Counted from the first letter of the stretch, positions 7,141 through 32,061 are shown. The stretch: 64,000 nt of DNA from Pseudomonadota bacterium (GCA_043821645.1 JBDRCO010000037.1:224001-288000), one strand, 5' to 3'. The notes: generated from the sequence alone by a model not told the origin. Made by a program: numbers and translations.

Positions 7141-7146
7141 TATAGT
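7141..7146 (+). promoter_or_regulatory. Putative sigma70 -10 element (TATAGT) for the RCC1-repeat gene
   Basis: TATAGT lies about 35 nt upstream of ATG 7182; the -35 element is poor. Confidence 0.35.
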
Positions 7147-7181
7147 GGGGGTCCCTGATGCGACTCGAGATGAGGGGTGAC

Positions 7182-10100: not shown

Positions 10101-12341
10101 GCCAGCGTGACCTGCGAGCCCATGACCGGCGCTCTCGAGGTGTTTGCAGGGAGCGAGCATGCCTGTGCCATCGTCGACGTGCTCGGCGCCCGCCAGGCCT
10201 GGTGCTGGGGCGACGGCTACTACGGCGAGCTTGGCTACGGCGACAGCTACGACAGCGCCTGGCCGCAGCCGGTCTGCCTGAGCGGACTGTGGGACGGGAC
10301 GGTTTGCAGCGGCAGTGTCCTCGAGGGCGTCGAGCAGATCGCCCTGGGCGATGATCACTCCTGTGCCCGGCTCACCAGTGGCGACGTGATGTGCTGGGGC
10401 TACGGCTCCTTGCTGGGTGACCAGTGGGGCTCCAACAGCGACAACCCGGTGGCCGTGTGCCTGGGCGACTCGAGTGAAGTCAGCACCTGCGAGCCCCTGA
10501 CCGGTACCCTGGACCTGGTCGCCGGCTCCGACCACAGCTGCGCCCTGCTGGCAGATCGCACCGTGCGCTGCTGGGGCAGCAATTACCCATACACCACGGG
10601 CGACGGGCTCGCGGATACCTCCACGCGCGATGGTGCGGTGCCTGTCTGCACGCGCGGCGCCCGACAGAACGACGCCTGCTCGCTCGAAGCCCTGTCCAGT
10701 GTGCTCCAGCTCAGCGCTGGCAATAGGCATACCTGCGCCCTGCGCGATGACGGCACGGTGTGGTGCTGGGGCTCCAACAACCGGGGCCAGCTCGGCGACG
10801 GAAGCACCGAGGACAGGCGCAACGCGACACAGGTCTGCGGGAGTGGCACCCGGCTCGGTGGCGATTGCGTACCGTTGAGCAATGTGGTCGAGGTTCACGC
10901 AGGCTTCTCCCACACCTGCGCCGTGCGCCGGGTCGACGTGACCACCACCGAGGTCATCTGTTGGGGCGAAGGCCGCAACGGTGAGCTGGGCGCGGGGCCC
11001 GGTGCCCTGGCGGTCTATCCGACCGAGGTCTGCGCCAGCGGCAGCGGCAATGCCTGCGCGCCCCTGTCCGGCATCGTGAGCATCACAGCCGGTGCTGTGC
11101 ACAGCTGCGCGCTCCTCGACACTGGCGAGGTCTGGTGCTGGGGCTCGGGCCTCCTCGGCCAGCTCGGCAACGGCGATCTCGACGAGAACCGCAGCGCCAG
11201 TCCCGTGCCCGTGTGCGCGCGCGGCCGGCAATCCGACGGTACCTGCGAGCACCTGCAGGGTGTCGTGGCCCTGGCCTCCGCAGGCTGGAACACCTGCGCT
11301 CTTCTGGTCTCGGGCAGCATGGTGTGCTGGGGCGACAACCAGTTTGGCCAGGTGGGCTCGGGCCTGGTGCCTGTGGACTACCGGGGGATTGCCTATCCGC
11401 TGCTCAACCCGACCCCCGTGTGCATCTCGGGCCGGGGTATCTCCTGTGAACCACTGAGCAACGTGGTTTCCATGGATATCGGCCCGTCGCACGCCTGCGC
11501 CCTGACCTCCGCCGGCGAGCTGTGGTGCTGGGGTCGCAACGACCGCGGGCAGCTCGGGGACGGCACCTGGGCCGAGGCCGGATGCAACGACTACATCTAC
11601 AGCTCGGGCGTCACCTTGATTCCCTCGGCCTGCCGATTCCTGCCTGTGCGGGTGTGCGGCGAGGGAGCGGGACCGGGCTGCACGCCGCTGCAGGGTGTGC
11701 GCAGCGTGCGCACCGGAGATACCCACACCTGTGCCATCTTGCAGGATGGTGAGCTGCGCTGCTGGGGCGACAACCGATCCGCGCAGCTTGGCGACGGCAC
11801 CAGCGTCAGCTCGTACCTTCCGCAGCGCGTCTGGAACCAGGACAGCAGCGGCTCGCTGTCCGCGCTGACCGGAGTGGTGGGCCTGTCCCTCGCCACCTCG
11901 TCGACGTGCGCGCTGAGGCAGGATGGCACCGTCTGGTGCTGGGGCCTGTCCTGGTACGGTGAGCTTGGCAGTGGGACCTGGTACGGTGACGAGGGGTGCA
12001 CGGACTTCGAGGACTACGAGGCCCAGTGCCAGTTCCATCCGCAGCCTGTCTGCACGTCGACCAGCAGCGGCCGCTGCGACGGCCAGTGCACGGCCACCCT
12101 GGGCCAGGTGGTGGCCATCGAGGGCGGTGATCACCAGCACTGTGCCCTGCTCGAAGATGGGCAGGTGCGTTGCTGGGGTGACGGTCAGGATGGTGAGCTG
12201 GGTTCGGGCAACTCGGGCTGGGGTGCCTGGACCTGCGTGGCCGGATCGCCTTGCAGCTATCGCGACGCCACGGGCTGCGTGCCCGTCGAGGATCGCGCAA
12301 CGGCCACCTGCCAGGTACTGCAGGTCACGGCGCTCGACTGA
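7182..12341 (+). CDS. Large surface lipoprotein: two FN3-like domains plus 21 RCC1/BLIP-II-type repeats
   Basis: SD GAGGGG precedes ATG 7182. Lipobox-like SVAC. FN3 motifs (APSNL...VSW; LSWRD...GYLIER). I count 21 repeats of HxCA..DGxxxCWGxNxxGQLG. Confidence 0.85.
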   Translation: MRSFTTLMICIAATASVACQPVLHPEVKEPKPANSADICIAPGAPSNLRIEVQVDGILVSWDSGNGTASGYVVERRLFLDPTWGELVRVAAGETSVLDQNNILLDAQYGYRVLSYRTVESTGNSCLSDPTDEAVATTLPRVPEDAAAHAFADRIELSWRDVNDFETGYLIERRRRHTDRSFLEVMQLGRNDERWTDTDLVAGDTYDYHIFALNRTGRSNAVLVSAPATTSTRVPRPPQLSWSAAPYLDTQCVLQLEAQAVFDTDLGAAYDADRSSFSAPPLTSPAVTSVAEGSDRYALSAANTSLAQGQVLASWEVWDTLEGGATLQRNLLLQRNSVQRARERLPRPQIGDDDGAGRQALIPGCASCQGRRGSLALGWDHVCSLTDQGQAQCWGLNHVGQLGNGVAAWTSNSAVVCSGDVGQPCARTLQNVTALDLGEGSTCAVTEDGEARCWGDNGDGQLGDGFWGEESASVPQTVCQGGQRRNGTCVSLDNVVSLSASSGYACAVTADGGVRCWGDQGDHLGQGYMDDAYNPTPVCSGDVISPCGAVLDQVAEVSVGYGYSCALKQDGSVWCWGYNSSGQTGNGSDDQLSIPQPVCVQGVAAEGTCVPLTGVLALESGNNHSCALVAGGMLLCWGSNSSGQLGDGGDDNRFNPAPVCLTGTFDDETCVPLTGVESFSLGYGYTCAVRTGGELLCWGSNSGDLLGTGLNTGSKNPAGACMGGAWDGTTCTDEFGLVYDRFDSVESVFAGDDHTCAIRTDGSLWCWGDNYWGQLGDGTGVNRESPVEVCLTGSQDSSDCVPLAGVAEVVSDDYATCARLDDTSVWCWGSASYGRLGIGTMSSWYPNPEPVCESGTGGSCVPLTGAVRLGAGWARACARLDDGRLVCWGDSTDGRLGAGNTTDVSNPIDVCLTGETGVDCVPQTDVVGLDMSTTHSCLINADHELLCWGTYSTGNLGTFIANTVPLALPVCAQGASVTCEPMTGALEVFAGSEHACAIVDVLGARQAWCWGDGYYGELGYGDSYDSAWPQPVCLSGLWDGTVCSGSVLEGVEQIALGDDHSCARLTSGDVMCWGYGSLLGDQWGSNSDNPVAVCLGDSSEVSTCEPLTGTLDLVAGSDHSCALLADRTVRCWGSNYPYTTGDGLADTSTRDGAVPVCTRGARQNDACSLEALSSVLQLSAGNRHTCALRDDGTVWCWGSNNRGQLGDGSTEDRRNATQVCGSGTRLGGDCVPLSNVVEVHAGFSHTCAVRRVDVTTTEVICWGEGRNGELGAGPGALAVYPTEVCASGSGNACAPLSGIVSITAGAVHSCALLDTGEVWCWGSGLLGQLGNGDLDENRSASPVPVCARGRQSDGTCEHLQGVVALASAGWNTCALLVSGSMVCWGDNQFGQVGSGLVPVDYRGIAYPLLNPTPVCISGRGISCEPLSNVVSMDIGPSHACALTSAGELWCWGRNDRGQLGDGTWAEAGCNDYIYSSGVTLIPSACRFLPVRVCGEGAGPGCTPLQGVRSVRTGDTHTCAILQDGELRCWGDNRSAQLGDGTSVSSYLPQRVWNQDSSGSLSALTGVVGLSLATSSTCALRQDGTVWCWGLSWYGELGSGTWYGDEGCTDFEDYEAQCQFHPQPVCTSTSSGRCDGQCTATLGQVVAIEGGDHQHCALLEDGQVRCWGDGQDGELGSGNSGWGAWTCVAGSPCSYRDATGCVPVEDRATATCQVLQVTALD

Positions 12342-13756: not shown

Positions 13757-13785
13757 TTGACTTCGCGGTGTGCGCTCACGACAAT
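13757..13785 (+). promoter_or_regulatory. Putative sigma70 promoter for ftcd
   Basis: TTGACT-17 nt-GACAAT, about 45 nt upstream of ATG 13830. Confidence 0.5.
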
Positions 13786-13829
13786 TCCGGCGCAGCGCCA
13801 GGGATGACGTCGCGTCGGAGCAGAAAACC

Positions 13830-15533
13830 ATGAAACTCGTCGAGTGTGTGCCCAATTTTTCCGAGGGCCGCGATCGCGCGGTCATCGACGCCATCGCCGC
13901 GGCCATCACCTCGGTCGACGGCGCGGCACTGCTGGATGTGGATCCGGGTGCGGCCGCGCATCGCACCGTGGTGACCTTCGTGGCGCCGCCCGAGGCCGCG
14001 GTCGAGGCAGCCTTTCGCGCCATGCGCGTGGCCAGCGAGCGCATCGACATGAGCCACCACCACGGCGAGCACCCGCGTATGGGCGCCACCGACGTGTGCC
14101 CCTTTGTGCCGGTCGCCGGTGTCACCATGGACGAGTGTGTTGCCCTGGCCCGGCAACTGGGGCAACGTGTGGGTCGCGAACTCGGCATCCCGGTGTACCT
14201 GTACGAGGCGGCGGCCACGCGCCTCGAGCGCGCGAACCTTGCCGACATCCGGCGCGGCGAATACGAGGCCCTGGCCGACAAGCTGCGCGATCCCGCCTGG
14301 CTCCCCGACTTCGGGCCTGCCGAGCTCAACGCGCGCAGCGGCGCCTCCGTCATCGGTGCCCGCGAGTTCCTCATCGCCTTCAACGTCAACCTCAACACCC
14401 GCGACAAGAAGCTGGCTCACGACATCGCCCTGGACCTGCGCGAACAGGGCCGATCGGCCCGAGGTGACGACGGAAAATTCCTGCGGGATGCCCAGGGCAA
14501 CAAGGTGGCCGTGCCCGGTCTGTTCAAGGCGGTCAAGGCTGTGGGTTGGATCATCGACGAGTACGGCTGTGCCCAGATCTCGATGAACTTGACCGACTAC
14601 AAGGTCTCGCCGCCGCACCTGGTGTTCGACAGGGCCTGCGAGCTGGCCTGGCAGCGTGGCCTGCGGGTCACCGGCAGCGAACTGGTCGGCCTCATCCCCA
14701 AGACCGCCCTGCTCGAGGCCGGGCGGTACTACTTGCGCAAGCAGGGCAAGAGCGCTGGCGTCGGTGACGACGAGCTGGTGCGCGTGGCCGTGCAGTCCAT
14801 GGGTCTCGATGACGTGGCGACCTTTGACCCGGATCAGAAGATCATCGAGCACCGCACCGGAGCCAGGGACGGCCGCCTGGTGTCCATGACAGGCCGGCAC
14901 TTCGCGGAGACCCTGGCCTCGGACGCGCCCGCACCGGGAGGTGGGTCTGTTGCGGCTCTGGCGGGATGCCACGCGGCGTCCCTGGTGGCCATGGTGGCCT
15001 CATTGACCCACGGCAAGAAGGGCTACGAGGCCGTGGCGTCGGAGATGGAGACCATTGCGGTCGAGGGCCATGCGCTCAAGGAGAGCCTGCTGGCTGCTGT
15101 CGACGCCGACACCGCGGCCTTTGATGCGGTCATGGCCGCGATGAAGCTGCCCAAGAGCAGTGACGGCGAGAAGAAGGCTCGCGACCTCGCCCTCGAGCAG
15201 GCCAACAAGTGGGCGACGCTGGTGCCGCTGTCGACCCTGCGCCAGTGCCTGCGGCCTGCCGAGCTGGCTCGCGCGGTGGCCGACAAGGGCAACCCCAACA
15301 GCCTGTCCGACGCGGGTGTCGCCGCCCTGATGGCTGCGGCCGGCGCCCGGGGCGCCCTGTACAACGTGCTGATCAACCTGCCCGGCGTGAAGGATCCGAG
15401 CTTTCGCTCGACCACGGCCAGCGAAGCTCGCGCGCTGTACCAGCAGGTGCAGCGAACCTGTGACGAGGTCGCCATTGTGGTCGAGGAGAGGCTGGCCAAG
15501 AGCCTGATGACGAGCGGCGAAGGCGACCGCTGA
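13830..15533 (+). CDS. ftcd: Bifunctional glutamate formimidoyltransferase / formiminotetrahydrofolate cyclodeaminase
   Basis: N-terminus MKLVECVPNFSEGRD; HxGEHPRMGATDVCPFVP; QISMNL; cyclodeaminase half with APAPGGGSVAA and GNPNSLSDAGV...NVLINL. Confidence 0.95.
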   Translation: MKLVECVPNFSEGRDRAVIDAIAAAITSVDGAALLDVDPGAAAHRTVVTFVAPPEAAVEAAFRAMRVASERIDMSHHHGEHPRMGATDVCPFVPVAGVTMDECVALARQLGQRVGRELGIPVYLYEAAATRLERANLADIRRGEYEALADKLRDPAWLPDFGPAELNARSGASVIGAREFLIAFNVNLNTRDKKLAHDIALDLREQGRSARGDDGKFLRDAQGNKVAVPGLFKAVKAVGWIIDEYGCAQISMNLTDYKVSPPHLVFDRACELAWQRGLRVTGSELVGLIPKTALLEAGRYYLRKQGKSAGVGDDELVRVAVQSMGLDDVATFDPDQKIIEHRTGARDGRLVSMTGRHFAETLASDAPAPGGGSVAALAGCHAASLVAMVASLTHGKKGYEAVASEMETIAVEGHALKESLLAAVDADTAAFDAVMAAMKLPKSSDGEKKARDLALEQANKWATLVPLSTLRQCLRPAELARAVADKGNPNSLSDAGVAALMAAAGARGALYNVLINLPGVKDPSFRSTTASEARALYQQVQRTCDEVAIVVEERLAKSLMTSGEGDR

Positions 15534-15573: not shown

Positions 15574-16797
15574 TCAGGCCTCTCGCTGGTACACCAGCCG
15601 GCCCGCCTTGACCACGCGCTCGACGTGGTCTGCCCCCATGTCGGTGATCACATGGCGGGGCTCCGTGGTGTCGAGGATGACCAGATCACACTGCGTGCCC
15701 ACGTGCAGGCGGCCGATGTCGTCGCGACCCAGCGCGCAGGCAGCCTGGCGCGTGATGCCCAGCAGCGCCTCCTCGACGCTGAGACCACAGCGGGTGACGG
15801 CCAGGGTGGCGGCCAGCAGGAGGTTCTCGCAGTTGGCGGATCCCGGGTTGAAGTCGCTGGCCACGGCCACGCGCAGGCCCGCGTCGACGAGGGTGCGACC
15901 CGGTGCCGGCTTGCCCTTGCCCAGGTAGATCTCGCAGGTCGGCAGGATCACGGCGACCACGTCTGCCCGCCGCAGCTCCCGGATCTCCCTCTGGCGCGCC
16001 ACCTCGAGGTGGTCCGCGCTCACAGCCTGCAACTCGGCGGCCAGGCTGCAACCACCGAGACGATGAAACTGGTCGGTGTGCAGGCGGGCCTCGAGGTTGA
16101 GCTGCTGGCCGCGCATCAAGATGCGACGCGCCTGATCGACCGAGAAGGCTCCTTGCTCGACGTAGACGTCGCAGAATCGAGCCAGACCAGCTGCGGCTAC
16201 CGCGGGCAGCATCTCCTCGATCACGAGGTCCGTGTAGGCCTCCGTGCGGTCCCGGTACTCCGGCGGCACGGTGTGCGCGCCAAGGAAGGTCGGTGTGATC
16301 TCCACGGGCTGCAGGGCCGCCAGCACGCGCAGCACGCGCAACATCTTCAGCTCGTCGTCGAGCGACAGGCCATAACCGCTCTTGATCTCGATGGTGGTGA
16401 CACCCCGCTGCAGGGCGCGGTGCAGGCGCGGTATCGCCGCATCGACCAATTCCTCCTCGCTGGCAGCCCGGACCGCCTTGACCGTTTTCACGATCCCGCC
16501 ACCCGCAGCCGCGATGTCCAGATACGTAACGCCGCGCGCTCGTGCCGCGAACTCCTGACTGCGATCCCCGACGTGGAGCAGGTGGGTGTGGCAGTCCACC
16601 AGTCCTGGCAAAACGGCATGCCCCCGGGCATCGAGGATGGGGGTTCCGAGGGGCACGGGTGGGAGCTGGGCTTGGGGGCCGTACCAGGACACCAGGTCGT
16701 CGGCTGCGACCAGGGCTGCGTTGCGGATCACGCCCAGGCTGCTGCCGGCTCCAGGCTCGCAGGTGACCAGGTTCCCGATGTTGTGCACCACCAGCAT
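15574..16797 (-). CDS. hutI: Imidazolonepropionase
   Basis: PGLVDCHTH, GGGIVKTV, GVTTIEIKSGYGL, FCDVYVEQGAF, SADHLE, ASDFNPGS. Confidence 0.95.
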   Translation of the reverse strand: MLVVHNIGNLVTCEPGAGSSLGVIRNAALVAADDLVSWYGPQAQLPPVPLGTPILDARGHAVLPGLVDCHTHLLHVGDRSQEFAARARGVTYLDIAAAGGGIVKTVKAVRAASEEELVDAAIPRLHRALQRGVTTIEIKSGYGLSLDDELKMLRVLRVLAALQPVEITPTFLGAHTVPPEYRDRTEAYTDLVIEEMLPAVAAAGLARFCDVYVEQGAFSVDQARRILMRGQQLNLEARLHTDQFHRLGGCSLAAELQAVSADHLEVARQREIRELRRADVVAVILPTCEIYLGKGKPAPGRTLVDAGLRVAVASDFNPGSANCENLLLAATLAVTRCGLSVEEALLGITRQAACALGRDDIGRLHVGTQCDLVILDTTEPRHVITDMGADHVERVVKAGRLVYQREA

Positions 16798-16869
16798 GCT
16801 TCTGCTCCCGCCTCTCTGCGGCGCTCCCCGCCACCTGATGTTCTGGCGCGTGATCCGCTGGCGCTGGAC

Positions 16870-17595
16870 TCAGGGCTTTCCACGTGCAGGCAAGGTCTTG
16901 CCACCAGGCAGCTCCAGGAGCCGTGCCAGGGCTCGGGCTGCGGTACGAGCCGTGGCTGCGACCAGTTCGCCATTGTCGGCAAAACCATCACACTCGAACC
17001 AGCAACCGCGCGCCGACAGTCTCAGCCGGGCACCGCGATGATCGAGGGCATAGCGCACCAGGCGTCGCGCCTCCTCGTCGTCCAGGATAGGGGCGAGCGA
17101 TGGCATCGGGTCGTCGTGAGCGAGGGCGGTGGCGCGCTCCTCCAGATCAGGCCAGGGTAGGGGCCACACGGTCCTCGCCGCGGTCACGAGGTGACTGGCC
17201 CCGGAACCGCCCGCCAGGATGAGATCGGGGCCGTGATACAGGGCGGTCTCGGCCTCGACAACACACAAAGCCTGCTCCTCGCCAGGTTGGGCGCGATGCT
17301 CACGGTACAGCCTGAAGCGCTGGCCGCTTTCGTCAAACAGGACCGCGCCGCGTCCGGGATCGCGCCGGCTGCGTTGCACCTGCCCGCCCAGGGCCGCCGC
17401 GGCTTGATCCAGGCTGCCTGCCGCCGCGAGCAGTCGCGAACGACGGCGCTGGAACAGCCACAGGCCCAGGCCAGCACCCGCGAACAGGATGACCAGAAGT
17501 AGCGTTCCGCCCACGACCCACTCCGTCGACGTTGACACCGTGGCAGGGCCACCTGCGATGCGTCTATGATGCCACGACCGGGCGTGAGGTTCCAC
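16870..17595 (-). CDS. Hypothetical protein with an N-terminal transmembrane helix (start may be GTG 17538)
   Basis: Hydrophobic stretch WVVGGTLLLVILFAGAGLGLWLF followed by RRR; fills the gap upstream of hutI on the same strand. Confidence 0.6.
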   Translation of the reverse strand: MEPHARSWHHRRIAGGPATVSTSTEWVVGGTLLLVILFAGAGLGLWLFQRRRSRLLAAAGSLDQAAAALGGQVQRSRRDPGRGAVLFDESGQRFRLYREHRAQPGEEQALCVVEAETALYHGPDLILAGGSGASHLVTAARTVWPLPWPDLEERATALAHDDPMPSLAPILDDEEARRLVRYALDHRGARLRLSARGCWFECDGFADNGELVAATARTAARALARLLELPGGKTLPARGKP

Positions 17596-17630
17596 GGTCC
17601 CCTCACGGTGCTGGGTCAGCGAGAGGGTGC

Positions 17631-19826
17631 ATGCGTGTCGTCATAGCCAGCGTGCCCTTTGCCACTCCCTTTGCTCCGGCCCTCGGTGGTCCCCTGGTGG
17701 CCGCCGAGTTCGAGGCGCAAGGCGTTGAGGCCAGGGTTGTCGACGGGTCCCTGCTGTGTCTGGAGAGCCTGTGGTCGCCGGACTGCCTGCGCAGGGGTAT
17801 CGAACACCTGCGCGATCAACTGGGTCACCTCGAGCGGCACGACACGCTGTCGCGCGCCGCCTTCGCCGGCTACCAGGAAGCCACCCGCGCCGTGCTCGGT
17901 GCACAGCAGGTCCTTGCCCAGGTCGGGGGCGCACTGGCGACACTTCGAGGCCACGGAACGGGCGAGATCCCCGAGCCGGCCACCTATGATCGCGCGCTCG
18001 GGATCGTGCAGGCAGCCCTCGGCCTGGCCTCGGCGCCTTTCTGGCCCGAGCAGGTCTCCCTGCACCGGTACCGTCCCCCGGCTCCGCTGCGCAGCGTCGA
18101 CGATCTGCTGCGCCATGCGCGCAGACCTGTGGCCGAAAGCTTGTTTGGCGAGGCCCTGAACTCCATCGTCACCGCGGCGGTGCTTGAGGACGGTGGGCCC
18201 GGGCCGGATCTGGTGGGCCTCTCGATCACTTTCCCCGAGCAGCTCGGACCCGCGGCCATGCTCGGGCGCTGTCTGCGCGAGCGTGGCTTTCGCGGTCACA
18301 TTGCCTGGGGCGGCGCTCTCATGGCACACCTGGCTGACGATCTGCTGCGTGCGACGCCGCTGCTGCAGGCGGGTCTCGTCGACGTCATTGTGCCCCATCC
18401 CGGAATTCAACCCCTGCTGCGATGGCTCGAGGCGGGATCGTCCACGATACCCGTGGCTGGAGCCCTGGTGCCAGGGCAGCCCTGGGTGCCCGGGACCCTC
18501 GACGTCCACGAACACGCGCGCTGGGTCGAGGCCATGCCCACGCCTCGCTTCGACGATCTGCCGCTGGATCGCTACCTCAGCCCACGCCCCGTGCTGCCCC
18601 TGCTGACGACGCTGGGCTGCTACCACCAGCGCTGCACCTTCTGCGATCACTTTCACTCCGTCTGTCGTTACCGGCCGCGATCCGTGAACCATGTTCTGCG
18701 CGACCTGCGTGTCCTTCACGAACGCTTCGCGTGCCGCGACATCTACCTCGTCGACGACTGCACACCACCCCGGATGCTGCGCCAGCTCGCCCAGGGGCTC
18801 CTGCAGTGGCGTGACGACGGGGGTCCCGAGCTTGGATGGATCACCGAGTGCCGCGCCGAGCGCGCGCTCCTGGCAGAGGGTCTGCTCACAGATCTCGGGC
18901 GAGCCGGCTGCCGCATGCTGCTGTTCGGTCTGGAGTCCGCCGACGACGGGGTCCTCGAGGCCATGGGCAAGGGCACGGACAGCGCGACCCTGAGTGCGGT
19001 GCTGCGGGCGGTTCACGCCGCTGGCATCGGCACGTGGTGCTTTTACATGGTTGGCTACCCCGCCGAGGACCCTGTGGCGGCCCAGGTCACCCAGGATTTT
19101 CTGGCCGCCCACGCCGAGGTGGTGGACGTGCTGGCAGGCGGACCCTTCGTGGTCACGCGACACGCCCCGGTGGCCCTGGATCCGGGGCGGCATGGCGTCC
19201 GGCTCGTCGGCGAGCGCGCCTCGGGATCCCGCAAGGCTCCGCCTCCTCGTCTCGACCTGCTGCTGCCGCACCAGGGCGGCCGGATGAGCGAGGCCCAGCA
19301 GGGGCGTGTGCTGCGCGCGCTGCTCGAGGACCCGCACCTGCAGCACTACCGGCACCCGCTGGTGGTCGAGGCGCATACCCTGTTCCTGGACCGTCGCTAC
19401 TACCACCAGCACGACCTGCGGCCTCCTTCCGCAGCTTCATCCCCACCCTCGGCGTCCACGGACGTCTGGCGTGCCTGTCTCGTCGAGCCGGTACCAGACC
19501 TCAGCGTGCAATACTTTCGCTTCCCCACCCAGGCCAGCCGCGTGCCATCGGCAGGCAAGATCACACAGGCTCCGACCGCGGTGCTTTTCGACCTGGCCCG
19601 GGGGCGTTCACTCGAGGTCACGGTGCCGGTGGCCGCCCTGGTCGAACGCTGCCTGGCGGCGCCGCGAACCGTCGACGAGCACATCCATCACACCGTGGAG
19701 CTGGGGCAAGGGGACGACGCCGAGGTGGAGCAGGCGATCACGCAGCTGGTCGAGGCCGGTTTCCTCGTGGTCCAGCGCGAGCGGTCGGACTTGACACCGG
19801 GTACCAGTCCAGGGGAGACCCCATGA
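17631..19826 (+). CDS. Cobalamin-binding-type radical SAM protein with a C-terminal PqqD/winged-helix-like extension
   Basis: N-terminal B12-binding-like Rossmann segments (PDLVGLSITF..Q, WGG). PRFDDLPLDRY; GCYHQRCTFC; YLVDDC; LLFGLES...MGKG; YMVGYP. Confidence 0.85.
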   Translation: MRVVIASVPFATPFAPALGGPLVAAEFEAQGVEARVVDGSLLCLESLWSPDCLRRGIEHLRDQLGHLERHDTLSRAAFAGYQEATRAVLGAQQVLAQVGGALATLRGHGTGEIPEPATYDRALGIVQAALGLASAPFWPEQVSLHRYRPPAPLRSVDDLLRHARRPVAESLFGEALNSIVTAAVLEDGGPGPDLVGLSITFPEQLGPAAMLGRCLRERGFRGHIAWGGALMAHLADDLLRATPLLQAGLVDVIVPHPGIQPLLRWLEAGSSTIPVAGALVPGQPWVPGTLDVHEHARWVEAMPTPRFDDLPLDRYLSPRPVLPLLTTLGCYHQRCTFCDHFHSVCRYRPRSVNHVLRDLRVLHERFACRDIYLVDDCTPPRMLRQLAQGLLQWRDDGGPELGWITECRAERALLAEGLLTDLGRAGCRMLLFGLESADDGVLEAMGKGTDSATLSAVLRAVHAAGIGTWCFYMVGYPAEDPVAAQVTQDFLAAHAEVVDVLAGGPFVVTRHAPVALDPGRHGVRLVGERASGSRKAPPPRLDLLLPHQGGRMSEAQQGRVLRALLEDPHLQHYRHPLVVEAHTLFLDRRYYHQHDLRPPSAASSPPSASTDVWRACLVEPVPDLSVQYFRFPTQASRVPSAGKITQAPTAVLFDLARGRSLEVTVPVAALVERCLAAPRTVDEHIHHTVELGQGDDAEVEQAITQLVEAGFLVVQRERSDLTPGTSPGETP

Positions 19827-19879
19827 AGGAGCCACAGAGACAGCAGGTGCGGTCTCTGGCCACAGCAGAGGAGGATCGC

Positions 19880-20104
19880 ATGCCCGAGGCCATCATCATC
19901 TACGGCAAGGACAGCTGACCCTACACCTCGGACGCCCGTGAGGCGTTCGCCAGCCAGGGCCGCCAGGTCGAATACCACGATGTCACGCGCGACCGTGGGC
20001 AGCTGCAGGCCATGCTCAAGGCCTCTGGCGGCCGTCGCCAGGTGCCCGTCCTCGTCGACGCGGGCAAGGTGACCATAGGCTACGGCGGCTCCTGAGGCGT
20101 GTGA
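19880..20104 (+). CDS. Glutaredoxin-like double-selenocysteine protein, Uxx-star type (74 aa; U13 and U72)
   Basis: SD GAGGAGG then ATG. Reading UGA as Sec gives MPEAIIIYGKDS-U-PYTSDAREAFASQGRQVEYHDVTRDRGQLQAMLKASGGRRQVPVLVDAGKVTIGYGGS-U-GV*. UPYT occupies the glutaredoxin CPYC position and the cis-Pro motif QVPV is present. A hairpin follows each UGA. Confidence 0.88.
19930..19948 (+). promoter_or_regulatory. Putative bacterial SECIS hairpin for UGA 19916-19918
   Basis: GGACGCC-CGTGA-GGCGTTC, a 7-bp stem with a G-containing loop starting 11 nt after the UGA. Confidence 0.65.
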
Positions 20105-20110
20105 GCACAA

Positions 20111-20128
20111 GATCCGCGGTCGCGGATC
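20111..20128 (+). promoter_or_regulatory. Putative bacterial SECIS hairpin for UGA 20093-20095
   Basis: GATCCGC-GGTC-GCGGATC, a perfect 7-bp stem starting 15 nt after the UGA; no U-tract. Confidence 0.55.
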
Positions 20129-21128
20129 AGGTCGTCCCGGGGACGGGGTTGGCAAACAGCTCGACACCGCCACCGGTGTGCCAGAACACCACGGTCTCGT
20201 CGGCGGCGATGCGCTCCTGCTCGAGGTAGTCCAGCAGCGCAGCCGCTGCCTTGCCGGTGTACACGCGATCGAGAAAGATCCCCTCGAGGCGCGCGAACAC
20301 CTCGATCGCATCCAGGGTCTCCGCCGTGGGCACGCCGTAGCCCTCTCCAACGTAGCCGTCGTCGACGCGGACGTCGCGGGCGCTGACCCGGGTACCGGTG
20401 AGCCGCGCAGCCTTCTGGGCCAGCATGAAGACATCGTTGGCCAGACCGAGCTGATCGCTGGCCACCGAGATGCCCGTCACCCGTCCTGACCATCCGGCCA
20501 GGGCGCGCCCGACCACCAGTCCCGCCTGGGTGCCGCCGGTGCTCGAGGCCAGGACGATGTGATCACAGGTGTCGCGCAGGCGCTTGAAGTCGCGCATCAG
20601 CTCGCCGAATCCTGCCACGTAGCCCAGCACGCCCACCGCCGAGGACCCGCCGAGGGGCATGACGTACACGTGTCGGCCGCGCGCTCGCAGCACCTCCGCC
20701 AGATCCACCGCAGCCTGCTCCCAGTCGTCCCAGTCCTCGGAATCGCAGAACTTGAGCTGGGCGCCCAGGATCTCGTCGAGGATCAGGTTGCCCGAGGGTC
20801 GGGCCGGAGGGGTGCCGCCGAGCACCAGGTAGCAGTCCATCTCGGCGCGCGCGGCAGCGGCGGCGGCCATGCGGCAGAAGTTGGACTGCACGGCGCCGAC
20901 GGCGATCAGGGTGTCGGCGCCGGCGCGCTGGGCATGTGCCATCAGGAACTCGAGCTTGCGCGCCTTGTTGCCACCGAAGGCAAAGCCCGTGAGATCGTCC
21001 CGCTTGCAGAACAGCCGGCAGCCGTAGAGGCGGCTCAGGCGGCTCAGGGGGGTCAGGGGGGTGGGCAGTTGAGCCAGGGACACCCTGGGATGCTGGGCCA
21101 GAAGCTGCTCGAACTGGGCCGGTTCCAT
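20127..21128 (-). CDS. dcyD: D-cysteine desulfhydrase family PLP enzyme (ACC deaminase/DcyD superfamily)
   Basis: PTPL, KRDDLTG.AFGGNKARKLEF (PLP Lys), QSNFCR, SSTGGTQAGL, DRVYTGKA, WHTGG. Thr at the positions where true ACC deaminases have Glu/Leu. Confidence 0.85.
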   Translation of the reverse strand: MEPAQFEQLLAQHPRVSLAQLPTPLTPLSRLSRLYGCRLFCKRDDLTGFAFGGNKARKLEFLMAHAQRAGADTLIAVGAVQSNFCRMAAAAAARAEMDCYLVLGGTPPARPSGNLILDEILGAQLKFCDSEDWDDWEQAAVDLAEVLRARGRHVYVMPLGGSSAVGVLGYVAGFGELMRDFKRLRDTCDHIVLASSTGGTQAGLVVGRALAGWSGRVTGISVASDQLGLANDVFMLAQKAARLTGTRVSARDVRVDDGYVGEGYGVPTAETLDAIEVFARLEGIFLDRVYTGKAAAALLDYLEQERIAADETVVFWHTGGGVELFANPVPGTT

Positions 21129-21290
21129 GTGTGCCTCGGATTCGGGTCGCATCTTAGGCAGCGGACGACGTTGTCACCAGGGGAGAGCGGTCGGTGATCT
21201 CCGAGCAGTGGGTTGGCTTTTTTTATAGAATCCTATTTTTCGAGGGTGTCATATATCTGTATGATATAACAAGAGAATAAACCGCTCATG

Positions 21291-21378: not shown

Positions 21379-21577
21379 CCTGTGGCGAGTGGCGGTCGGG
21401 GTGGACGCGTTGGCAGCGGGGGTGATCGCGACAGCGACCCAGGTTCGGAACGGCCAGAATCGTTGAGGCTGCTTGTGCAACTGCGCCGCGCCCTCTGCGG
21501 GGGGGCGGGCCCACAACACGAGCGCGGGATCCGGGTGTACCGAGGAGGTCCCGACGCTTGCAGTGAGTGAGCGCACG

Positions 21578-22363
21578 ATGATGGAAGAGCTCGATTTCCG
21601 TTCACGCTACATGGAGCTGGATGACAAGACCGACGAACTGAAGGAGTGGATTGACGAGTACGGTCCGCGCTGTTGCGAGTTCAGCGAGCACTTCGAGATC
21701 TCGTGGATCTACCACGAGAATGCCCTCGAGGGCGTGGTGCTGACCTACCACGAGATCAAGGCGGCCATCGACCAGAAGATCATCAGCGACGTCAATCTGA
21801 TCTCGACCTACCAGGAGATCAAGAACCAGAAAGAAGCTGTCGAGTTCGTGCGCCGCGCCGCCGGCAACAAGCGCACACGCATCAATCTCGAGTTCATCAA
21901 GAAGCTGCACGGCATCCTGTGCAATGACGTCGAGGGCAGCGAGGTGGGTCGATATCGCCGCGACATTCCGCTGCACCGCACGTACTTCCACGAGATCACC
22001 CAGCCGGCCAAGATCGCGCCGCGCCTCGCACAGCTCCTGCAGGGCGCCAACAGCAATGACTTCCGGCGCTGGCACCCGATCAAGCAGGCCGCGGCCTTTC
22101 ATCACGAGTTCATGCAGATCTTCCCCTTCTCGGAGCACTCGGGAATGGTCGGCCGCATGCTCATGAACTACTACCTGATGCGCGCTGGCTACATGCCGGC
22201 GGTGATCCACTCTGTCGACCGGCAGCGGTACTACGAGAGCCTGCGCGGTGTGCCGCGCGCCCTGCGGGAGCTCATCGTGGATTCGATGGACAATTCCCTC
22301 GAGAGCGGGATTCGCTACCTGCACGAGCTGGTGCAGGGACCCCAGAGCATGAGCGCCCAGTAA
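21578..22363 (+). CDS. Fic/Fido-domain protein with a degenerate catalytic motif
   Basis: YHENALEG (inhibitory-helix position), IKKLHGIL, GRYRR, HPIKQAAAFHHEFMQIFPFSEHSGMVGRMLMN, RQRYYESL. Confidence 0.85.
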   Translation: MMEELDFRSRYMELDDKTDELKEWIDEYGPRCCEFSEHFEISWIYHENALEGVVLTYHEIKAAIDQKIISDVNLISTYQEIKNQKEAVEFVRRAAGNKRTRINLEFIKKLHGILCNDVEGSEVGRYRRDIPLHRTYFHEITQPAKIAPRLAQLLQGANSNDFRRWHPIKQAAAFHHEFMQIFPFSEHSGMVGRMLMNYYLMRAGYMPAVIHSVDRQRYYESLRGVPRALRELIVDSMDNSLESGIRYLHELVQGPQSMSAQ

Positions 22364-22385: not shown

Positions 22386-23558
22386 TCAAAAAGCAAATCG
22401 ATAGCCGATCGCTGCCCGCGGCCCGAGCACGCGCGTGCGCATGGCGCGCCGCGGATCGGCATCGGAACGCGCCTCGGCATCGGGCGCATACAGGAAGCCC
22501 AGCTCCGCGGTGAGGGCGCCGAACGAGGTGTCCAGACCGCTGGTCAGCGCGCCACCTGCACACCACCCGAGCCCGGCCAGCCCGGTCTCGATGCGCCGCG
22601 CGTCCCCGCCGCGTAGCAGCACTTCCTCGACGAGACTGCCGAAGTAGGGGACGACGCCTCCGTCGACCCGCGCCCCCAGGAACCAGCGACCCGCGCCGGT
22701 GTCGACGCGGAGAGCCTCACCCTCGACAAACAGGACCACGGGGATCAGGTGCAAGGTCAGGAGGACCTGGGTGGGTGCCACCACGGGATTCATCACTGCA
22801 CTGGCCAGGTTCAGGCCGTAGCCGACGCGCAGGCCGGCAGAGAGCCTCTCGTCGAGAAACGGAGGAAAGTAGCGAAGCGACAGCTCGACCCCCGGAACGC
22901 CCAGGCCGAAGGCGACGCCGAGCTCGACACCGACATATCTCGTGGGCTGGTAGGGTGCCGACGCCGAGACCGTGGCGCTGCCCCCTGGGGTGGTCGCGGG
23001 CGAGGGTGTCGTGCTCCTGGTCGGGGAGGGTGCCGCGCTCTCTGCCGGCGGCGGGCTCAGGGACACCAGATCCGGTACCATGGCGTCGTCGTTGACGTCG
23101 GGGCCCGGGGCGTCGGAGGCCGAAACCTCCACCGCCGTGACGGCCAGCACCACCTGATCCACGTCCTCGGTCGGCGACTTGACCTCGATGGTGAAGCGCC
23201 GCGTTCCCGGCGGAATATCCGCCACGGCGACCAGCGGGCGGGTCAGCTTGCCTCCCCGCGCTCGCCTGTCCTCGGACAGCACCTGGCTCTGGTCGAGCAG
23301 GACCTGGCGGTCCGCCTTGACCCGCAGCTGCAGTTGCGCGCGGTTGCGGTCTTTCTTAAGCCGGGCGCGCACAGCGATCTCCACTGTGGCCGGAGGCTCG
23401 ACGTCGAAGATCAGCGCCTTGCCCGAATAGACAACATAGGGTCGCCTATCCCCGGAATGATCGATGACAGCGGGTGTCAGGCTCGCCCGCGGGGTCACCG
23501 TGCCTGGTGCTGCACTGGCGGTCGTGGCGAGGGCCAGAAGCATGGGGATCAAGATCAT
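22386..23558 (-). CDS. Secreted protein with a Pro/Thr linker and probable C-terminal outer-membrane beta-barrel
   Basis: Signal peptide LLALATTASA; PST-rich linker; alternating hydrophobic strands; ends YRFAF with terminal Phe. Confidence 0.65.
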   Translation of the reverse strand: MILIPMLLALATTASAAPGTVTPRASLTPAVIDHSGDRRPYVVYSGKALIFDVEPPATVEIAVRARLKKDRNRAQLQLRVKADRQVLLDQSQVLSEDRRARGGKLTRPLVAVADIPPGTRRFTIEVKSPTEDVDQVVLAVTAVEVSASDAPGPDVNDDAMVPDLVSLSPPPAESAAPSPTRSTTPSPATTPGGSATVSASAPYQPTRYVGVELGVAFGLGVPGVELSLRYFPPFLDERLSAGLRVGYGLNLASAVMNPVVAPTQVLLTLHLIPVVLFVEGEALRVDTGAGRWFLGARVDGGVVPYFGSLVEEVLLRGGDARRIETGLAGLGWCAGGALTSGLDTSFGALTAELGFLYAPDAEARSDADPRRAMRTRVLGPRAAIGYRFAF

Positions 23559-28381: not shown

Positions 28382-28517
28382 GGTCTGGCACTTTTTCGCG
28401 CGGGTCTGCGCGCCCCGCGTGAACGCACCACGCGACTGCCATGACACAGCACCAGGACCCACGAGCCGTCCGACCTGACGCGACACCAGCCTCCCACCGT
28501 CCCGGCTGGAGCCAGAG

Positions 28518-28937
28518 GTGAACCTCGGCGGCTCCATCCTCGTGGCCGAGGACTCGCGCCTGCTCCTCGAGCTGCTGCGCGACGCCTTGCTGGCGCACGG
28601 GATAGGTCAGCACGTCGTGGCCTGCGGCACCGGCGAGGTCCTCCTGGAACGGGCCCAGGAAGCCCTGGCGGCCGGAGACACGCCGGCGCTGTACATCCTC
28701 GACATCGTCATGCCGGGTGCCAGTGGACTCGAGGTGGCGCGCTCCCTGCGCGCAGCCGAGCGCTCCCTCGGCGCCAGGACCACACCCATCCTCCTTTACT
28801 CCTCCCTGCAGCGAAGCCCCGAGATCGACGAGGTCATCGAGAGCTGCTGGCCCGTGCGCTTCTGTCACAAGCAGGATGGCGCGCGATCCGATCGCCTGGC
28901 ACTGGCCATCGTGGAGACTCTGCGCGAGCTCGCCTGA
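28518..28937 (+). CDS. Single-domain response regulator (receiver)
   Basis: ILVAEDS, YILDIVMPGASGLEVARSLR, PILLYSS, FCHK. Confidence 0.9.
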   Translation: MNLGGSILVAEDSRLLLELLRDALLAHGIGQHVVACGTGEVLLERAQEALAAGDTPALYILDIVMPGASGLEVARSLRAAERSLGARTTPILLYSSLQRSPEIDEVIESCWPVRFCHKQDGARSDRLALAIVETLRELA

Positions 28938-28970
28938 GGGGCGTGCGGGATGCCTTTTTTGCAGGGACGC

Positions 28971-28979
28971 TGCTATGCT
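28971..28979 (+). promoter_or_regulatory. Putative extended -10 (TGcTATGCT) for the FHA gene
   Basis: TGN-TATGCT about 55 nt upstream of the start. Confidence 0.4.
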
Positions 28980-29032
28980 GACGGCGCGAGGCAGGGCGGG
29001 CTTCGTGCCCACCGCCATTCCAGGAGCGGGGC

Positions 29033-29605
29033 GTGACGTCGGATCATCCAGAGCAGCCCGGAGGGTCGTTGCCAGCCGAGGCCGAGAGCCCTCGTTCCAC
29101 CGAGCCTGCGCCCGCTGCTGCAGCCGCGGGTGGACCGACCCTGGGCGCGCCCCTGCCACCGGAGCCACGCACCGACCCCCACGGCTTCGAGCACCGGCCC
29201 CCGGTGACCATCGACATGCCGGCCCCGAGCTTCGAGGAGACCCGGGTCACCGAGGCGGTGGTTCACAAGCGCCGCATCAAGCGCCAGATCCAGCGCGCAC
29301 GTGCCCAGGCCTACGTGATCGTGCATCGGGCCGGGGTGGCACCAGCGCGGGTGCCCATGGAGCGCGACCACCTGGTCTTTGGTCGCGATCCCGCCGAGTG
29401 CGACATCGTCCTCGACGGCGGCGTGGTCTCGCGGAGCCATGCGCGCATCGATCGCAGCCAGGACGGCTACTACACGCTACAGGACTGCAAGTCCCGCAAC
29501 GGTACCTACGTCGAGGGCGTGCCCATCCGTCGCCGCAACCTTCTCGACGGCGATACCTTCGAGGTGGGTGAACACCTCATCGAGTTCCATCTCGGCGAGT
29601 CGTGA
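29033..29605 (+). CDS. FHA-domain protein with a Pro-rich N-terminus
   Basis: FGRDP..CDIVL, VSRSHA, SRNGTYV, LLDGDTFEVG. Confidence 0.9.
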   Translation: MTSDHPEQPGGSLPAEAESPRSTEPAPAAAAAGGPTLGAPLPPEPRTDPHGFEHRPPVTIDMPAPSFEETRVTEAVVHKRRIKRQIQRARAQAYVIVHRAGVAPARVPMERDHLVFGRDPAECDIVLDGGVVSRSHARIDRSQDGYYTLQDCKSRNGTYVEGVPIRRRNLLDGDTFEVGEHLIEFHLGES

Positions 29606-29611
29606 CCCTGG

Positions 29612-30631
29612 TCACGGCGTGCGCTGGGATCGGGCACGCTCGAGCACCTGCATCACCTTGGGGCTGGTGTCCGCGGGGTCGAGTTGCAGATCTGGCCGCG
29701 CGCCGAGCGCCGCGCGCATGGCCTCCTCGGCGCGTTCTATCTCGTCCGACGCCACGTAGCACGACGCCAGCCACACTTGCGCGGCCACCCGGGGCCAGGT
29801 CGGGAGCCCGGGATCGAGCAGGGCGCGGCGAAAGTACGCCACGCAGGCCAGGAAGTCGCCACGGCGATGGAGGGCAACACCGTCGCGCAGCAGGGGGCTC
29901 TGCAGCGCCTGGGCGTACGCCTGCAGGGGATCCTGGAGCTGCGCAGGCACGACGCCTCCGTCGGTCGTGGAGCCTGTACCGGCGTCCGTGGCCTCTACCG
30001 CCGAGGACTCGGTCGCGGCGCTTCCCTCGTCGGGAGCCCCTGCCGGCGCGCGCAGAGCATTGAGACGCGTTCGCACCGCCTCCTCGTCAGACCAGGAGGC
30101 AAACACCGGCACCAGGATCTTCTCGCCTGCCTCGACGGCGTTGGTCTTGCGGTCGCCGTTGATCTTGCGCAACAAGAACCGTCCATCGGTGTTCCGGTAG
30201 TACGTCTTGGAGAGCGTCCGCAGGTTGTCGCTCTTCTGCGCCGTGTGCCAGATCAGCGCAGGCACCGTGAGCGCGGTGCCCGCCGCCACGGCCTTGTCGC
30301 CGGGGAGTCCATTGATCGCGGCCAGGAGTGGCCCGCGGGTCTTGCGCTTGAGATGGGTTCTCGCCAGCGTGCTCAATGGGCTGCTGCGGCGAACCGTCGT
30401 GCGAAAGCTCACCGGCACCCTCAGCACCGTCCCCGCGGCCACCGCCTTGCCTTCCTCGAGCCTGTTGGCCGTTGCCAGCACCGGGGCAGCGGACGCTCGC
30501 CCGTAAAGGTCACGCGCCAGCCGGCTCATGGTCGATTCCACCGGCACCGTGTAGCTCAGGGAGCGCGCCTCCGTGGGTCGCGCCAGCAGCACGATCGTCG
30601 CCGTCAGCAGGGTGGCTCGCCAGGCGCTCAT
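29612..30631 (-). CDS. Secreted protein with three LysM-like repeats and a C-terminal TPR-like domain
   Basis: Signal peptide; repeats of the form YTV...LARDLYG...LATANRL...GTVLRVP; helical C-terminus ...LDPADTSPKV. ATGA overlap with the kinase stop. Confidence 0.75.
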   Translation of the reverse strand: MSAWRATLLTATIVLLARPTEARSLSYTVPVESTMSRLARDLYGRASAAPVLATANRLEEGKAVAAGTVLRVPVSFRTTVRRSSPLSTLARTHLKRKTRGPLLAAINGLPGDKAVAAGTALTVPALIWHTAQKSDNLRTLSKTYYRNTDGRFLLRKINGDRKTNAVEAGEKILVPVFASWSDEEAVRTRLNALRAPAGAPDEGSAATESSAVEATDAGTGSTTDGGVVPAQLQDPLQAYAQALQSPLLRDGVALHRRGDFLACVAYFRRALLDPGLPTWPRVAAQVWLASCYVASDEIERAEEAMRAALGARPDLQLDPADTSPKVMQVLERARSQRTP

Positions 30632-31944
30632 GGTCGCTGCTCCCGGCGCTCGGTGAGCTCGATGTTGAAGGTGATGGTGCGATCGGGCTCTATCTCCACC
30701 ACGCGACGCTCATCGCGAAAATGCTCGTTGCGCAGCTCCACCACGTGGCGGCCGGGCGCCAGGGGCAAGGCACGCATGAAGGGCGTCGTGTCGACGTAGG
30801 CGCCGTCGATGAAGACCCGTGCCCACGGCCACACGTTGACGCGCAGGTGGCCGTTGCCCGTCGCCGCCATGGCTCCGCGCCTGCCCACATCCTGGGGCCA
30901 CCACTCGATGACGCTGGCACCCAGGCTCGCCGACAGCAGACCCGCAGCACCGATCAGAGCCACGCGCCTCAGGCCAGGCCAGCGCGAGCGCGAGAAGGCC
31001 AGATCCATCTCGGTCAGGCTGGTCTCGGTGAGCACCGCGCGCGGCAGCACGGTCAATGCATCCTCCTCGGAGACCAGACCACGATGGTGCAGGAAGGCGA
31101 CGAGGCGGCTGCGCAGATTGATGCGTATCTGCCGCGACACGTAGCGCTCGAGGGCGACGCGCAGTGCCTCGGTGGAAGGGTAGCGCCGCTCGAGAGGCTT
31201 GCGCAGGCAGCGGCTCACGATGCGCTGCAGCACCAGCGGGATGTCGGGCTGGATGGTGCGGGGCGAGGGGTAGCTATCCTTGAGGATGGATTGCATGACC
31301 GTGCGCTGCTCGGTATCCCGGAACGGCTTGCGGCCGGTGAGCATCTGGTACAGCACGATGCCAAAGGAGAACATGTCCGAGCGCCAGTCCACGCGCTCAC
31401 CCATGATCTGCTCCGGAGACATGTACGAGGGCGTGCCCAGGGCGATGCCCGGCCGCGTCAGGTCTCCCAGGGCCTCGGCGCGGGCGATGCCGAAGTCCAT
31501 CAGCTTGACCTCGCCCAGCTTGCTCAGGACCACGTTGGAGGGCTTGATGTCGCGATGGACCATACCCCGGAAGTGCGCATACTCCAGGGCCCGGGCCAGC
31601 TGCAGAGCGATGGCGGCCGCCACCTCGGGTGGCAGGCGATCGACCCGCGCCAGCAGATCGTACAGGCTCACACCTTCGACGAATTCCATCACGATCGAAC
31701 GGGTGTCGCCCTCGCACACGTAGTCGTACACGTGCACGATATTCTCGTGCTGGAGCTTGGCCACGCTCAGGGCCTCGCGCTGGAAGCGCTCGATGATCTG
31801 CGCGTCGTGGGTGAACTCGGACTTGAGTTCCTTGATGGCGACCGGGCGGTCCAGCGCCTCCTGCGTGCCACGGTAAACCACGGCCATGCCGCCCTGGCCT
31901 ATCTCCTCGATGACCTGGTAGCTGCCGATGCGCCGCTCGCTCAT
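30628..31944 (-). CDS. Hanks-type Ser/Thr protein kinase with TM helix and PEGA domain
   Basis: IGQGGMAVVY, VAIK, HRDIKPSN, DFG, GTPSYMSPE, DMFSFG; TM segment; PWARVFIDG..VDTTP...PGRH. Confidence 0.95.
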   Translation of the reverse strand: MSERRIGSYQVIEEIGQGGMAVVYRGTQEALDRPVAIKELKSEFTHDAQIIERFQREALSVAKLQHENIVHVYDYVCEGDTRSIVMEFVEGVSLYDLLARVDRLPPEVAAAIALQLARALEYAHFRGMVHRDIKPSNVVLSKLGEVKLMDFGIARAEALGDLTRPGIALGTPSYMSPEQIMGERVDWRSDMFSFGIVLYQMLTGRKPFRDTEQRTVMQSILKDSYPSPRTIQPDIPLVLQRIVSRCLRKPLERRYPSTEALRVALERYVSRQIRINLRSRLVAFLHHRGLVSEEDALTVLPRAVLTETSLTEMDLAFSRSRWPGLRRVALIGAAGLLSASLGASVIEWWPQDVGRRGAMAATGNGHLRVNVWPWARVFIDGAYVDTTPFMRALPLAPGRHVVELRNEHFRDERRVVEIEPDRTITFNIELTERREQRP

Positions 31945-32061
31945 GCTGTGCTCTTCCGGGATCGCACGCGGGTATCTTAGCTCAAGTGCGCGCCGCGCAA
32001 GACCTCATGTGTCCTACGCGGCGACTTGCATTCTCCGTCGACGCGTCGGACATTGTCCGGG

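Follow-up and report, generated by a model that had tools for sequence, protein, structure and literature searches.

A predicted two-selenocysteine glutaredoxin-fold protein of UXX-star family 1 with a SECIS-like hairpin after each internal UGA

The described systems closest to the gene reported here are (i) family 1 of the UXX-star selenoproteins (NF041114), whose members share U-x-x-T near the N-terminus, a selenocysteine (Sec) third from the C-terminus, and two Sec residues in all; (ii) UXX-star families 2 and 3 and the HUGP/GUXX-star fusion selenoprotein (NF045501), which contain the same glutaredoxin-like module and end in U-x-x-stop; and (iii) the classical dithiol glutaredoxins (PF00462; E. 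coli Grx3 3grx/1fov, 2klx), which have the same fold and the same position for the attacking residue. Several UXX-star families were defined by Haft and Tolstoy in 2025, as relayed in the available text of a 2026 review (PMC13188914), where family 2 is listed with one Sec. Table 1 of the same review contains family 1, with a UxxT motif and two Sec, under the name “Distant Grx-like protein 1” and credits it to the 2008 Global Ocean Sampling study (PMC13188914). The name and the UxxT motif also appear in the accessible portion of a 2022 review (PMC9312934), while the accessible portion of the 2008 paper has a table row reading “Grx-like, UxxC” (PMC2398784). No experimental paper on UXX-star family 1 was found in the literature searched, the matches being the reviews and the Global Ocean Sampling survey only.

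The window analyzed here is one continuous stretch of 64,000 nucleotides (64 kb). The gene of interest and the features around it are the following.

17532-19826, + strand: radical SAM protein of 764 residues (PF04055, 35.9 bits over residues 359-510)
19868-19874, + strand: Shine-Dalgarno-like GAGGAGG, read from the sequence, 5 nt upstream of ATG 19880
19880-20104, + strand: coding sequence of the predicted 74-residue UXX-star family 1 selenoprotein (Sec13, Sec72), terminal TGA included (translation and NF041114 match)
19916-19918, + strand: UGA codon 13, predicted Sec in U-P-Y-T (TGA or TGC/TGT in the aligned loci; opposite the first Cys of CPYC)
19919-19959, + strand: SECIS-like element 1, within the coding sequence (fold, bSECIS model, conservation)
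20093-20095, + strand: UGA codon 72, predicted Sec third from the C-terminus in U-G-V-stop (TGA in 80/80 loci)
20102-20104, + strand: true stop codon TGA (the aligned codon is a stop in 79/80 loci)
20111-20128, + strand: SECIS-like element 2, in the 3′ untranslated region (fold, bSECIS model, conservation)
20127-21152, − strand: PLP-dependent enzyme of the D-cysteine desulfhydrase/ACC deaminase/D-cysteate sulfo-lyase group (CuyA, 318.7 bits)

The segment 19880-20104 is very probably a genuine two-Sec member of UXX-star selenoprotein family 1. Its read-through product scores 112.3 bits against NF041114 (“UXX-star selenoprotein family 1”; curated cut-off 72, E = 9.3e-33), with residues 5-74 spanning model positions 1-70 of 70, i.e., the whole model. 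The broader model NF041212 (“Uxx-star family glutaredoxin-like (seleno)protein”) is passed as well, at 87.1 bits against a cut-off of 66, and the two matches together bear out the Uxx-star-type layout named in a preliminary description of this DNA. The general Pfam Glutaredoxin domain (PF00462) is recognized at 41.8 bits. The window copy differs from family 1 in no family-defining feature and is 51-67% identical to 79 aligned read-through homologs. The nearest selenoprotein homologs (66%) are from an unclassified bin, Vicinamibacterales, and Polyangium. The best explanation taken whole, namely a 74-residue, glutaredoxin-fold UXX-star family 1 selenoprotein in which both UGA codons are read as Sec, is very likely to be correct. 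Since the family is already listed with UxxT and two Sec, the gene is genuine but not new: family, motif, and Sec number are catalogued, and the find is one more routine member rather than a new kind.

Assignment to the neighboring families fails by a wide margin. The protein lies far under the cut-offs of the UXX-star families 2 and 3 models (NF041211, 48.8 vs 100; NF047338, 53.4 vs 97) and of the fusion selenoprotein (44.8 vs 325), to which it aligns over the model's C-terminal 73 positions. All equivalog models for glutaredoxins (GRX_bact, 38.8 vs 90; GRX_euk, 26.7 vs 87.25), NrdH (17.2 vs 85.75), and mycoredoxin (26.7 vs 89.5) likewise stay under cut-off. The active site of classical Grx1/Grx3, either a C-P-Y-C dithiol or a C-x-x-S monothiol, is absent, as the window protein has U-P-Y-T and thus presents U/C-x-x-T at the glutaredoxin active-site position.

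The layout of the gene can be followed directly in the sequence. The Shine-Dalgarno-like GAGGAGG, ATG 19880, and the TGA codons at 19916, 20093, and 20102 are all present as given in the preliminary description, and retranslation returns an identical read-through peptide. The frame is open from TGA 19916 to TGA 20093, which is followed by GGC GTG and TGA 20102; a UGA, exactly two codons, and a stop make up the UXX tail, and the same arrangement recurs in 79/80 related loci. The gene had been called invisible to standard ORF callers. This holds for naive callers, as a plain ORF listing gives no ORF of 40 aa or longer in this frame; NCBIfam, however, provides a curated model. GC content by codon position is 0.68/0.49/0.88 and resembles that of the neighboring genes (0.77/0.51/0.80 for the radical SAM protein and 0.72/0.49/0.87 for the PLP enzyme). 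Two other frames overlap the same DNA. An antisense ORF at 19688-20434 (− strand; GC 0.60/0.70/0.73) shows no coding pattern and no family match, and an ORF at 18836-19918 (+ strand) that overlaps the gene likewise has neither a coding GC pattern nor a family match. A read-through screen of the window, in which every in-frame TGA with coding-like GC3 on both sides was collected, returned 35 candidates; none of the eight that were scanned, selected for falling into a gap between called genes or for linking long frames, matches any selenoprotein family, and most are off-frame junk.

Relatives of the gene were read at the DNA level. A scan of species-representative genomes returned 566 relatives, and the best 80 of these 566 loci (L001-L080) were examined codon by codon. 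The query used for locus selection carried Cys at both positions of interest, so the selection does not favor TGA. The codon at position 1 is TGA in 58 loci, TGC in 17, and TGT in five (Cys in 22 altogether), whereas that at position 2 is TGA in all 80 and never Cys. Two codons past position 2 a stop is found in 79 of the 80 (TGA 33, TAG 24, TAA 22). The two residues in between are G-V in 50 loci, E-V in 20, and other pairs in 10, while the N-terminal motif is UPYT in 50, CPYT in 21, and another U/C-x-x-T variant in nine. Relatives from several phyla have the two TGA positions in common, and each of the two UGA codons is a conserved trait of the family. Individual loci deviate in their tails: L063 (10214-10228) lacks a stop after U-x-x and reads U-S-A-M-T..., which may reflect a sequencing error or a longer tail, and L009 and L068 have a tandem pair of TGA codons after U-G-V.

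A tree was built from 80 aligned sequences, comprising the window and 79 loci with L063 left out and the two Sec columns excluded. The Sec/Cys state at position 1 changes at least eight times on this tree, and three of the changes are forced by well-supported branches. The Cys protein of L038 and the Sec protein of L073 are near-identical. Invariant columns across the 80 sequences include both Sec positions, T16, P56, and G67/G69.

Protein databases give the complementary view. A word-indexed search yielded 30 aligned homologs, most of which have C-P-Y-T and end exactly before position 72, while some have W at both positions. A HMMER search with the family profile against 1.84 billion representatives gave 1507 matches at E ≤0.001, and the best 150 of these 1507 were classified. 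At position 1 they have Cys (92), W (18), or G/S (2), or do not cover the site (38); at position 2 they end just before it (93), have Cys (16), W (11), or R/T (2), or do not cover it (28). Several of the 16 proteins with Cys at position 2, which are more distant representatives, end in C-x-x. Each position is thus represented by Cys/Sec pairs, and this is the criterion by which selenoproteins are normally recognized. The expectation that homologs would carry Cys or UGA at the two sites holds, the exceptions among the 150 being R and T at position 2 and G and S at position 1.

Two readings would remove Sec from the gene altogether. The first treats both TGA codons as mutations that disabled what was once a glutaredoxin gene, or the frame as open by chance. 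The emptiness of the plain ORF listing here is in its favor, as is the lack of visible Sec machinery within 64 kb: a tRNA scan and an Rfam scan of the window found no tRNA, tRNA-Sec included, and no Rfam family, and SelA, SelB, and SelD have no match among the 43 window ORFs scanned. (The 48 loci scanned for tRNA-Sec, out of the 80 related ones, contain none either.) A decayed gene would hardly share TGA at the same two positions with relatives from several phyla, however, nor retain full-length similarity to the family model, an intact coding GC signature, and conserved SECIS hairpins, and a pseudogene or chance frame is accordingly regarded as highly improbable. The second reading is a stop-codon reassignment in which TGA is read as Trp or Gly throughout the organism. 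The W at both positions in some database homologs could be taken for such recoding of TGA to Trp (11/150 at position 2, 18/150 at position 1), but these residues probably result from the source pipeline having rendered TGA as Trp. Homologs carry Cys, rather than Trp or Gly, at both positions; the flanking genes of the window themselves terminate at TGA (19824-19826 and 20127-20129), and TGA also serves the family as its terminal stop in 33/80 loci. The probability of reassignment is negligible. Insertion of Sec at both positions of the window gene is instead the predicted outcome.

The published bacterial SECIS model demands a loop of 3-9 nt, a stem of 4-16 bp, a G within the first two loop bases, a UGA-to-loop distance of 16-37 nt, and an energy of -7.5 kcal/mol or lower (Fig. 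2 legend, PMC13188914). A hairpin at SECIS distance had been described after each of the two UGA codons, and both satisfy the model's four constraints; each predicted Sec codon of the window gene is thus followed by a SECIS-type hairpin in the structural sense, which is a statement about structure alone and not about function. Such hairpins have an appreciable background in this GC-rich window, where 132 of 1374 TGA triplets (9.6%) precede a model-compliant hairpin and 3.2% precede one of -10 kcal/mol or better. The folding energy of the whole segments after the two UGAs is unremarkable (z = -0.84 and -0.74, with 40 and 41 of 200 shuffles folding equally well or better). The hairpins alone are only moderately unusual; it is consequently the family match (E = 9.3e-33), together with conservation among relatives, that carries the case.

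Hairpin 1 lies inside the coding sequence. Its inner stem pairs 19929-19936 with 19942-19949 (8 bp including one G-U) around the loop CGUGA (19937-19941), and an outer helix pairs 19919-19922 with 19956-19959. The 7-bp hairpin first reported at 19930-19948 is therefore present, with a stem that is one pair longer (19929-19949). The UGA-loop spacing is 18 nt and the energy -11.8 kcal/mol, both compliant with the model. At least three contiguous base pairs close the loop in 45/58 Sec loci vs 0/22 Cys loci (Mann-Whitney p = 1.9e-9), a p-value that overstates independence because the two classes cluster on the tree (at least eight changes). In an alignment of 59 sequences read in fixed register, 69.5% of cells are paired, compared with 36-53% once partners are slid. 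The covariation score of 0.224 stands against 0.07-0.17 for slid partners and is reached by none of 500 shuffles, although the test is biased in favor of the hairpin since the structure was taken from the window's own fold. Compensatory changes are present, one pair having 18 double-sided changes. Other measures do not separate the classes: the strict contiguous-stem model at position 1 is matched in 4/58 Sec loci vs 3/22 Cys loci; an MFE-based SECIS caller, which is fragile and missed the window's own hairpin 1, detects 13/58 Sec vs 2/22 Cys loci (Fisher p = 0.22); and Sec loci show no difference from Cys loci in total MFE after position 1 (p = 1.0). L038, a recent switch to Cys, still keeps hairpin 1. 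In the proposed mechanism, UGA 19916 would be decoded as Sec under the direction of this intragenic hairpin.

Hairpin 2 is formed by 20111-20117 paired with 20122-20128 (7 bp) around the loop GGUC (20118-20121), and folding reproduces it as initially described. It complies with the model at a spacing of 22 nt and -10.9 kcal/mol, and its 3′ arm overlaps two nucleotides of the stop codon of the convergent gene (20127-20129). A hairpin occurs at the same place in 79/80 loci, in non-coding sequence and with stem sequences unrelated between loci. Its stem has at least 6 bp in 70/80 loci vs 26% of shuffles and begins 12-18 nt from the U of the UGA in 73/79; a G is among the first two loop bases in 78/79, and the strict model is matched in 63/80. 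Conservation of both hairpins is thus supported, by presence in 79/80 loci for the second and by covariation and pairing in Sec loci for the first.

The position of hairpin 2 past the end of the gene and between convergent genes, where terminators occur, opens a further reading: only UGA 19916 would be Sec, a 71-residue product would end at UGA 20093, and the hairpin would be a transcription terminator. Gene callers do terminate the protein before position 2 in 93/150 cases (best 150 of 1507). A terminating codon would be expected to vary as the real stop does (TGA 33, TAG 24, TAA 22), whereas position 2 is TGA in 80/80 loci; the codons after it are kept (G-V in 50 loci, E-V in 20), and in more distant relatives the site is occupied by Cys, with x-x-stop after it. 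The hairpin, moreover, stands at a fixed distance from the UGA with its early loop G in 78/79 loci, and a terminator scan found no T-run terminator. A single-Sec protein is therefore very improbable, and two Sec residues remain the preferred assignment. For the second of them, UGA 20093 would be decoded under the direction of hairpin 2, which lies beyond the true stop. That stop, 6 nt after the Sec-UGA, is itself a UGA in the window gene and in 33/80 relatives. No model-compliant hairpin lies at SECIS distance from the terminal UGA 20102, because the loop is only 13 nt away; being two codons on, UGA 20102 would be too close to hairpin 2 and would lead to termination.

The fold was modeled with AlphaFold2 from the 80-sequence alignment with Sec written as Cys (mean pLDDT 91, pTM 0.77). 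The predicted elements are a strand (5-9), a helix (14-25), a strand (30-34), a helix (39-49), and two strands (57-60 and 63-66), with residues 72-73 in a bridge. The best Foldseek matches are the glutaredoxins 3ic4, 4tr0, 7c12, and 3grx (TM 0.73-0.78), and the predicted structure corresponds to a thioredoxin/glutaredoxin fold without the last (C-terminal) helix. Aligning the family profile to solved glutaredoxins places Sec13 opposite the first Cys and Thr16 opposite the second Cys of CPYC/CPHC, in agreement with the suggestion that the first UGA sits at the nucleophilic Cys. Relative to classical dithiol glutaredoxins, the window protein thus has Sec for the first Cys, Thr for the second, and no last helix; its active-site motif lacks a second Cys, and the chain ends three residues past a conserved G-x-G-G turn.

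These features suggest a redox chemistry in which the two ends of the chain cooperate. Sec13, at the start of helix 1, would occupy the site of the glutaredoxin attacking Cys, with Thr16 replacing the usual second Cys, and Sec72, on a short tail after the G-x-G-G turn, would be the resolving partner of the Sec13 adduct. The latter role is inferred for Sec72 from the position of the G-G turn, which in glutaredoxins lines the active-site groove. The cycle would lead from a pair of selenols to a Sec13-Sec72 selenenylselenide and back, delivering electrons to a substrate. Mammalian thioredoxin reductase offers an analogy: its C-terminal Gly-Cys-Sec-Gly is on a short tail beside a redox centre. The window protein is alike in having a predicted Sec within a few residues of the C-terminus, but the resemblance would be one of mechanism only, the two being unrelated in fold, size, and SECIS type. 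The chances that a Sec13-Sec72 redox couple is the working mechanism are judged to be slightly under even. An intramolecular diselenide, as originally put forward, is plausible for the window protein. In 22/80 relatives the pair would be Cys-Sec rather than Sec-Sec, so that the chemistry common to the family would be that of two paired chalcogens, of which the C-terminal Sec is obligatory, and need not be that of a diselenide.

The same two residues might instead bind metals or metalloids, with a selenol pair (or one selenol plus one thiol) chelating a soft element such as Hg, As, Cu, or Zn in a chaperone or scavenger without redox cycling. Sec as a metal ligand has been proposed for UXX-star proteins by Haft and co-workers, as relayed in the available text of PMC13188914, and genes for a ZIP-type transporter (12 loci) and a TOBE-domain ABC ATPase (12 loci) occur within a few kb of family members. 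These neighbors are found in at most 12/81 loci and in particular clades, however, while most of the conserved neighbors are of the housekeeping type; nothing metal-related is present among the window's own neighbors, and Sec13 occupies the very position that is catalytic in a thiol-disulfide oxidoreductase fold. Metal binding is accordingly considered unlikely in comparison with a redox function.

The genomic neighborhood was searched for a functional partner. The radical SAM gene ends 53 nt before the ATG of the selenoprotein on the same strand. Its product shows weak similarity, far below cut-off, to B12-binding radical SAM methyltransferases (PhpK, HpnJ, and a RiPP C-methyltransferase), and its N-terminal ~330 residues have no Pfam match. 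Radical SAM enzymes require a reductant, and the selenoprotein could be the dedicated reductant, or a repair partner, of this enzyme, with the two genes co-transcribed; no promoter-like or terminator-like site was found in the 53-nt gap. Yet homologs of the radical SAM protein occur in 0/80 related loci, and no radical SAM cluster is among the annotated conserved neighbors, which makes a dedicated partnership very unlikely. On the other side, the best model for the PLP enzyme is CuyA, whose 318.7 bits are under the cut-off of 450, and its gene is convergent with that of the selenoprotein.

No gene is conserved alongside the family as a partner. The largest neighbor cluster covers 19/81 loci, and homologs of the window's seven specific neighbors are found in 0/80 loci, with generic TPR matches only, in six. 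Pfam was run on 17 neighbor-cluster representatives, i.e., the 15 largest clusters and two of the next four. Those with a match are of the housekeeping type (APH-type kinase, nucleotidyl transferase, TP_methylase, CN hydrolase, deformylase, and PTS), and five of the 17 have no Pfam match. Because no partner gene is conserved alongside it, the selenoprotein would work on its own, as a small redox carrier.

The rest of the window is varied. Upstream are a TPR protein exceeding 2300 residues, whose frame is open at the window start (1-6957, +), a 1731-residue RCC1-repeat protein (7146-12341, +), and two proteins of histidine degradation: a formiminotransferase-cyclodeaminase-like protein (FTCD_N, FTCD, and FTCD_C; 13761-15533, +) and the imidazolonepropionase HutI (15574-16869, −; TIGR01224, 418 bits vs a cut-off of 298). 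Downstream are a Fic/DOC domain protein (21473-22363, +; PF02661, 59.5 bits, no NCBIfam match), an adjoining 390-residue ORF without a family match (22386-23558, −), and, at 28479-32004, a response regulator, an FHA protein, and a Ser/Thr kinase carrying a PEGA domain. Together with the TPR and RCC1-repeat proteins, the last three give the window a myxobacterial appearance, which may point to its taxon.

For annotation, a two-Sec selenoprotein should be entered here, where an intergenic gap would otherwise be left. Public gene calls for UXX-star family 1 are systematically wrong: the 93 of the best 150 representatives that end before the second Sec include 36 consisting of only the fragment between the two UGAs. 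The family is widespread, a single scan of species-representative genomes returning 566 relatives. Tentatively, and with doubt outweighing confidence, three elements may be joined into one account, in which Sec72 is indispensable, a single 3′ hairpin separates the Sec-UGA from the stop-UGA by spacing alone, and the tail with Sec72 functions as a swinging arm, taking electrons away from the Sec13 site. If this is true, the gene would offer, in compact and natural form, a means of measuring the spacing rule of bacterial Sec insertion.
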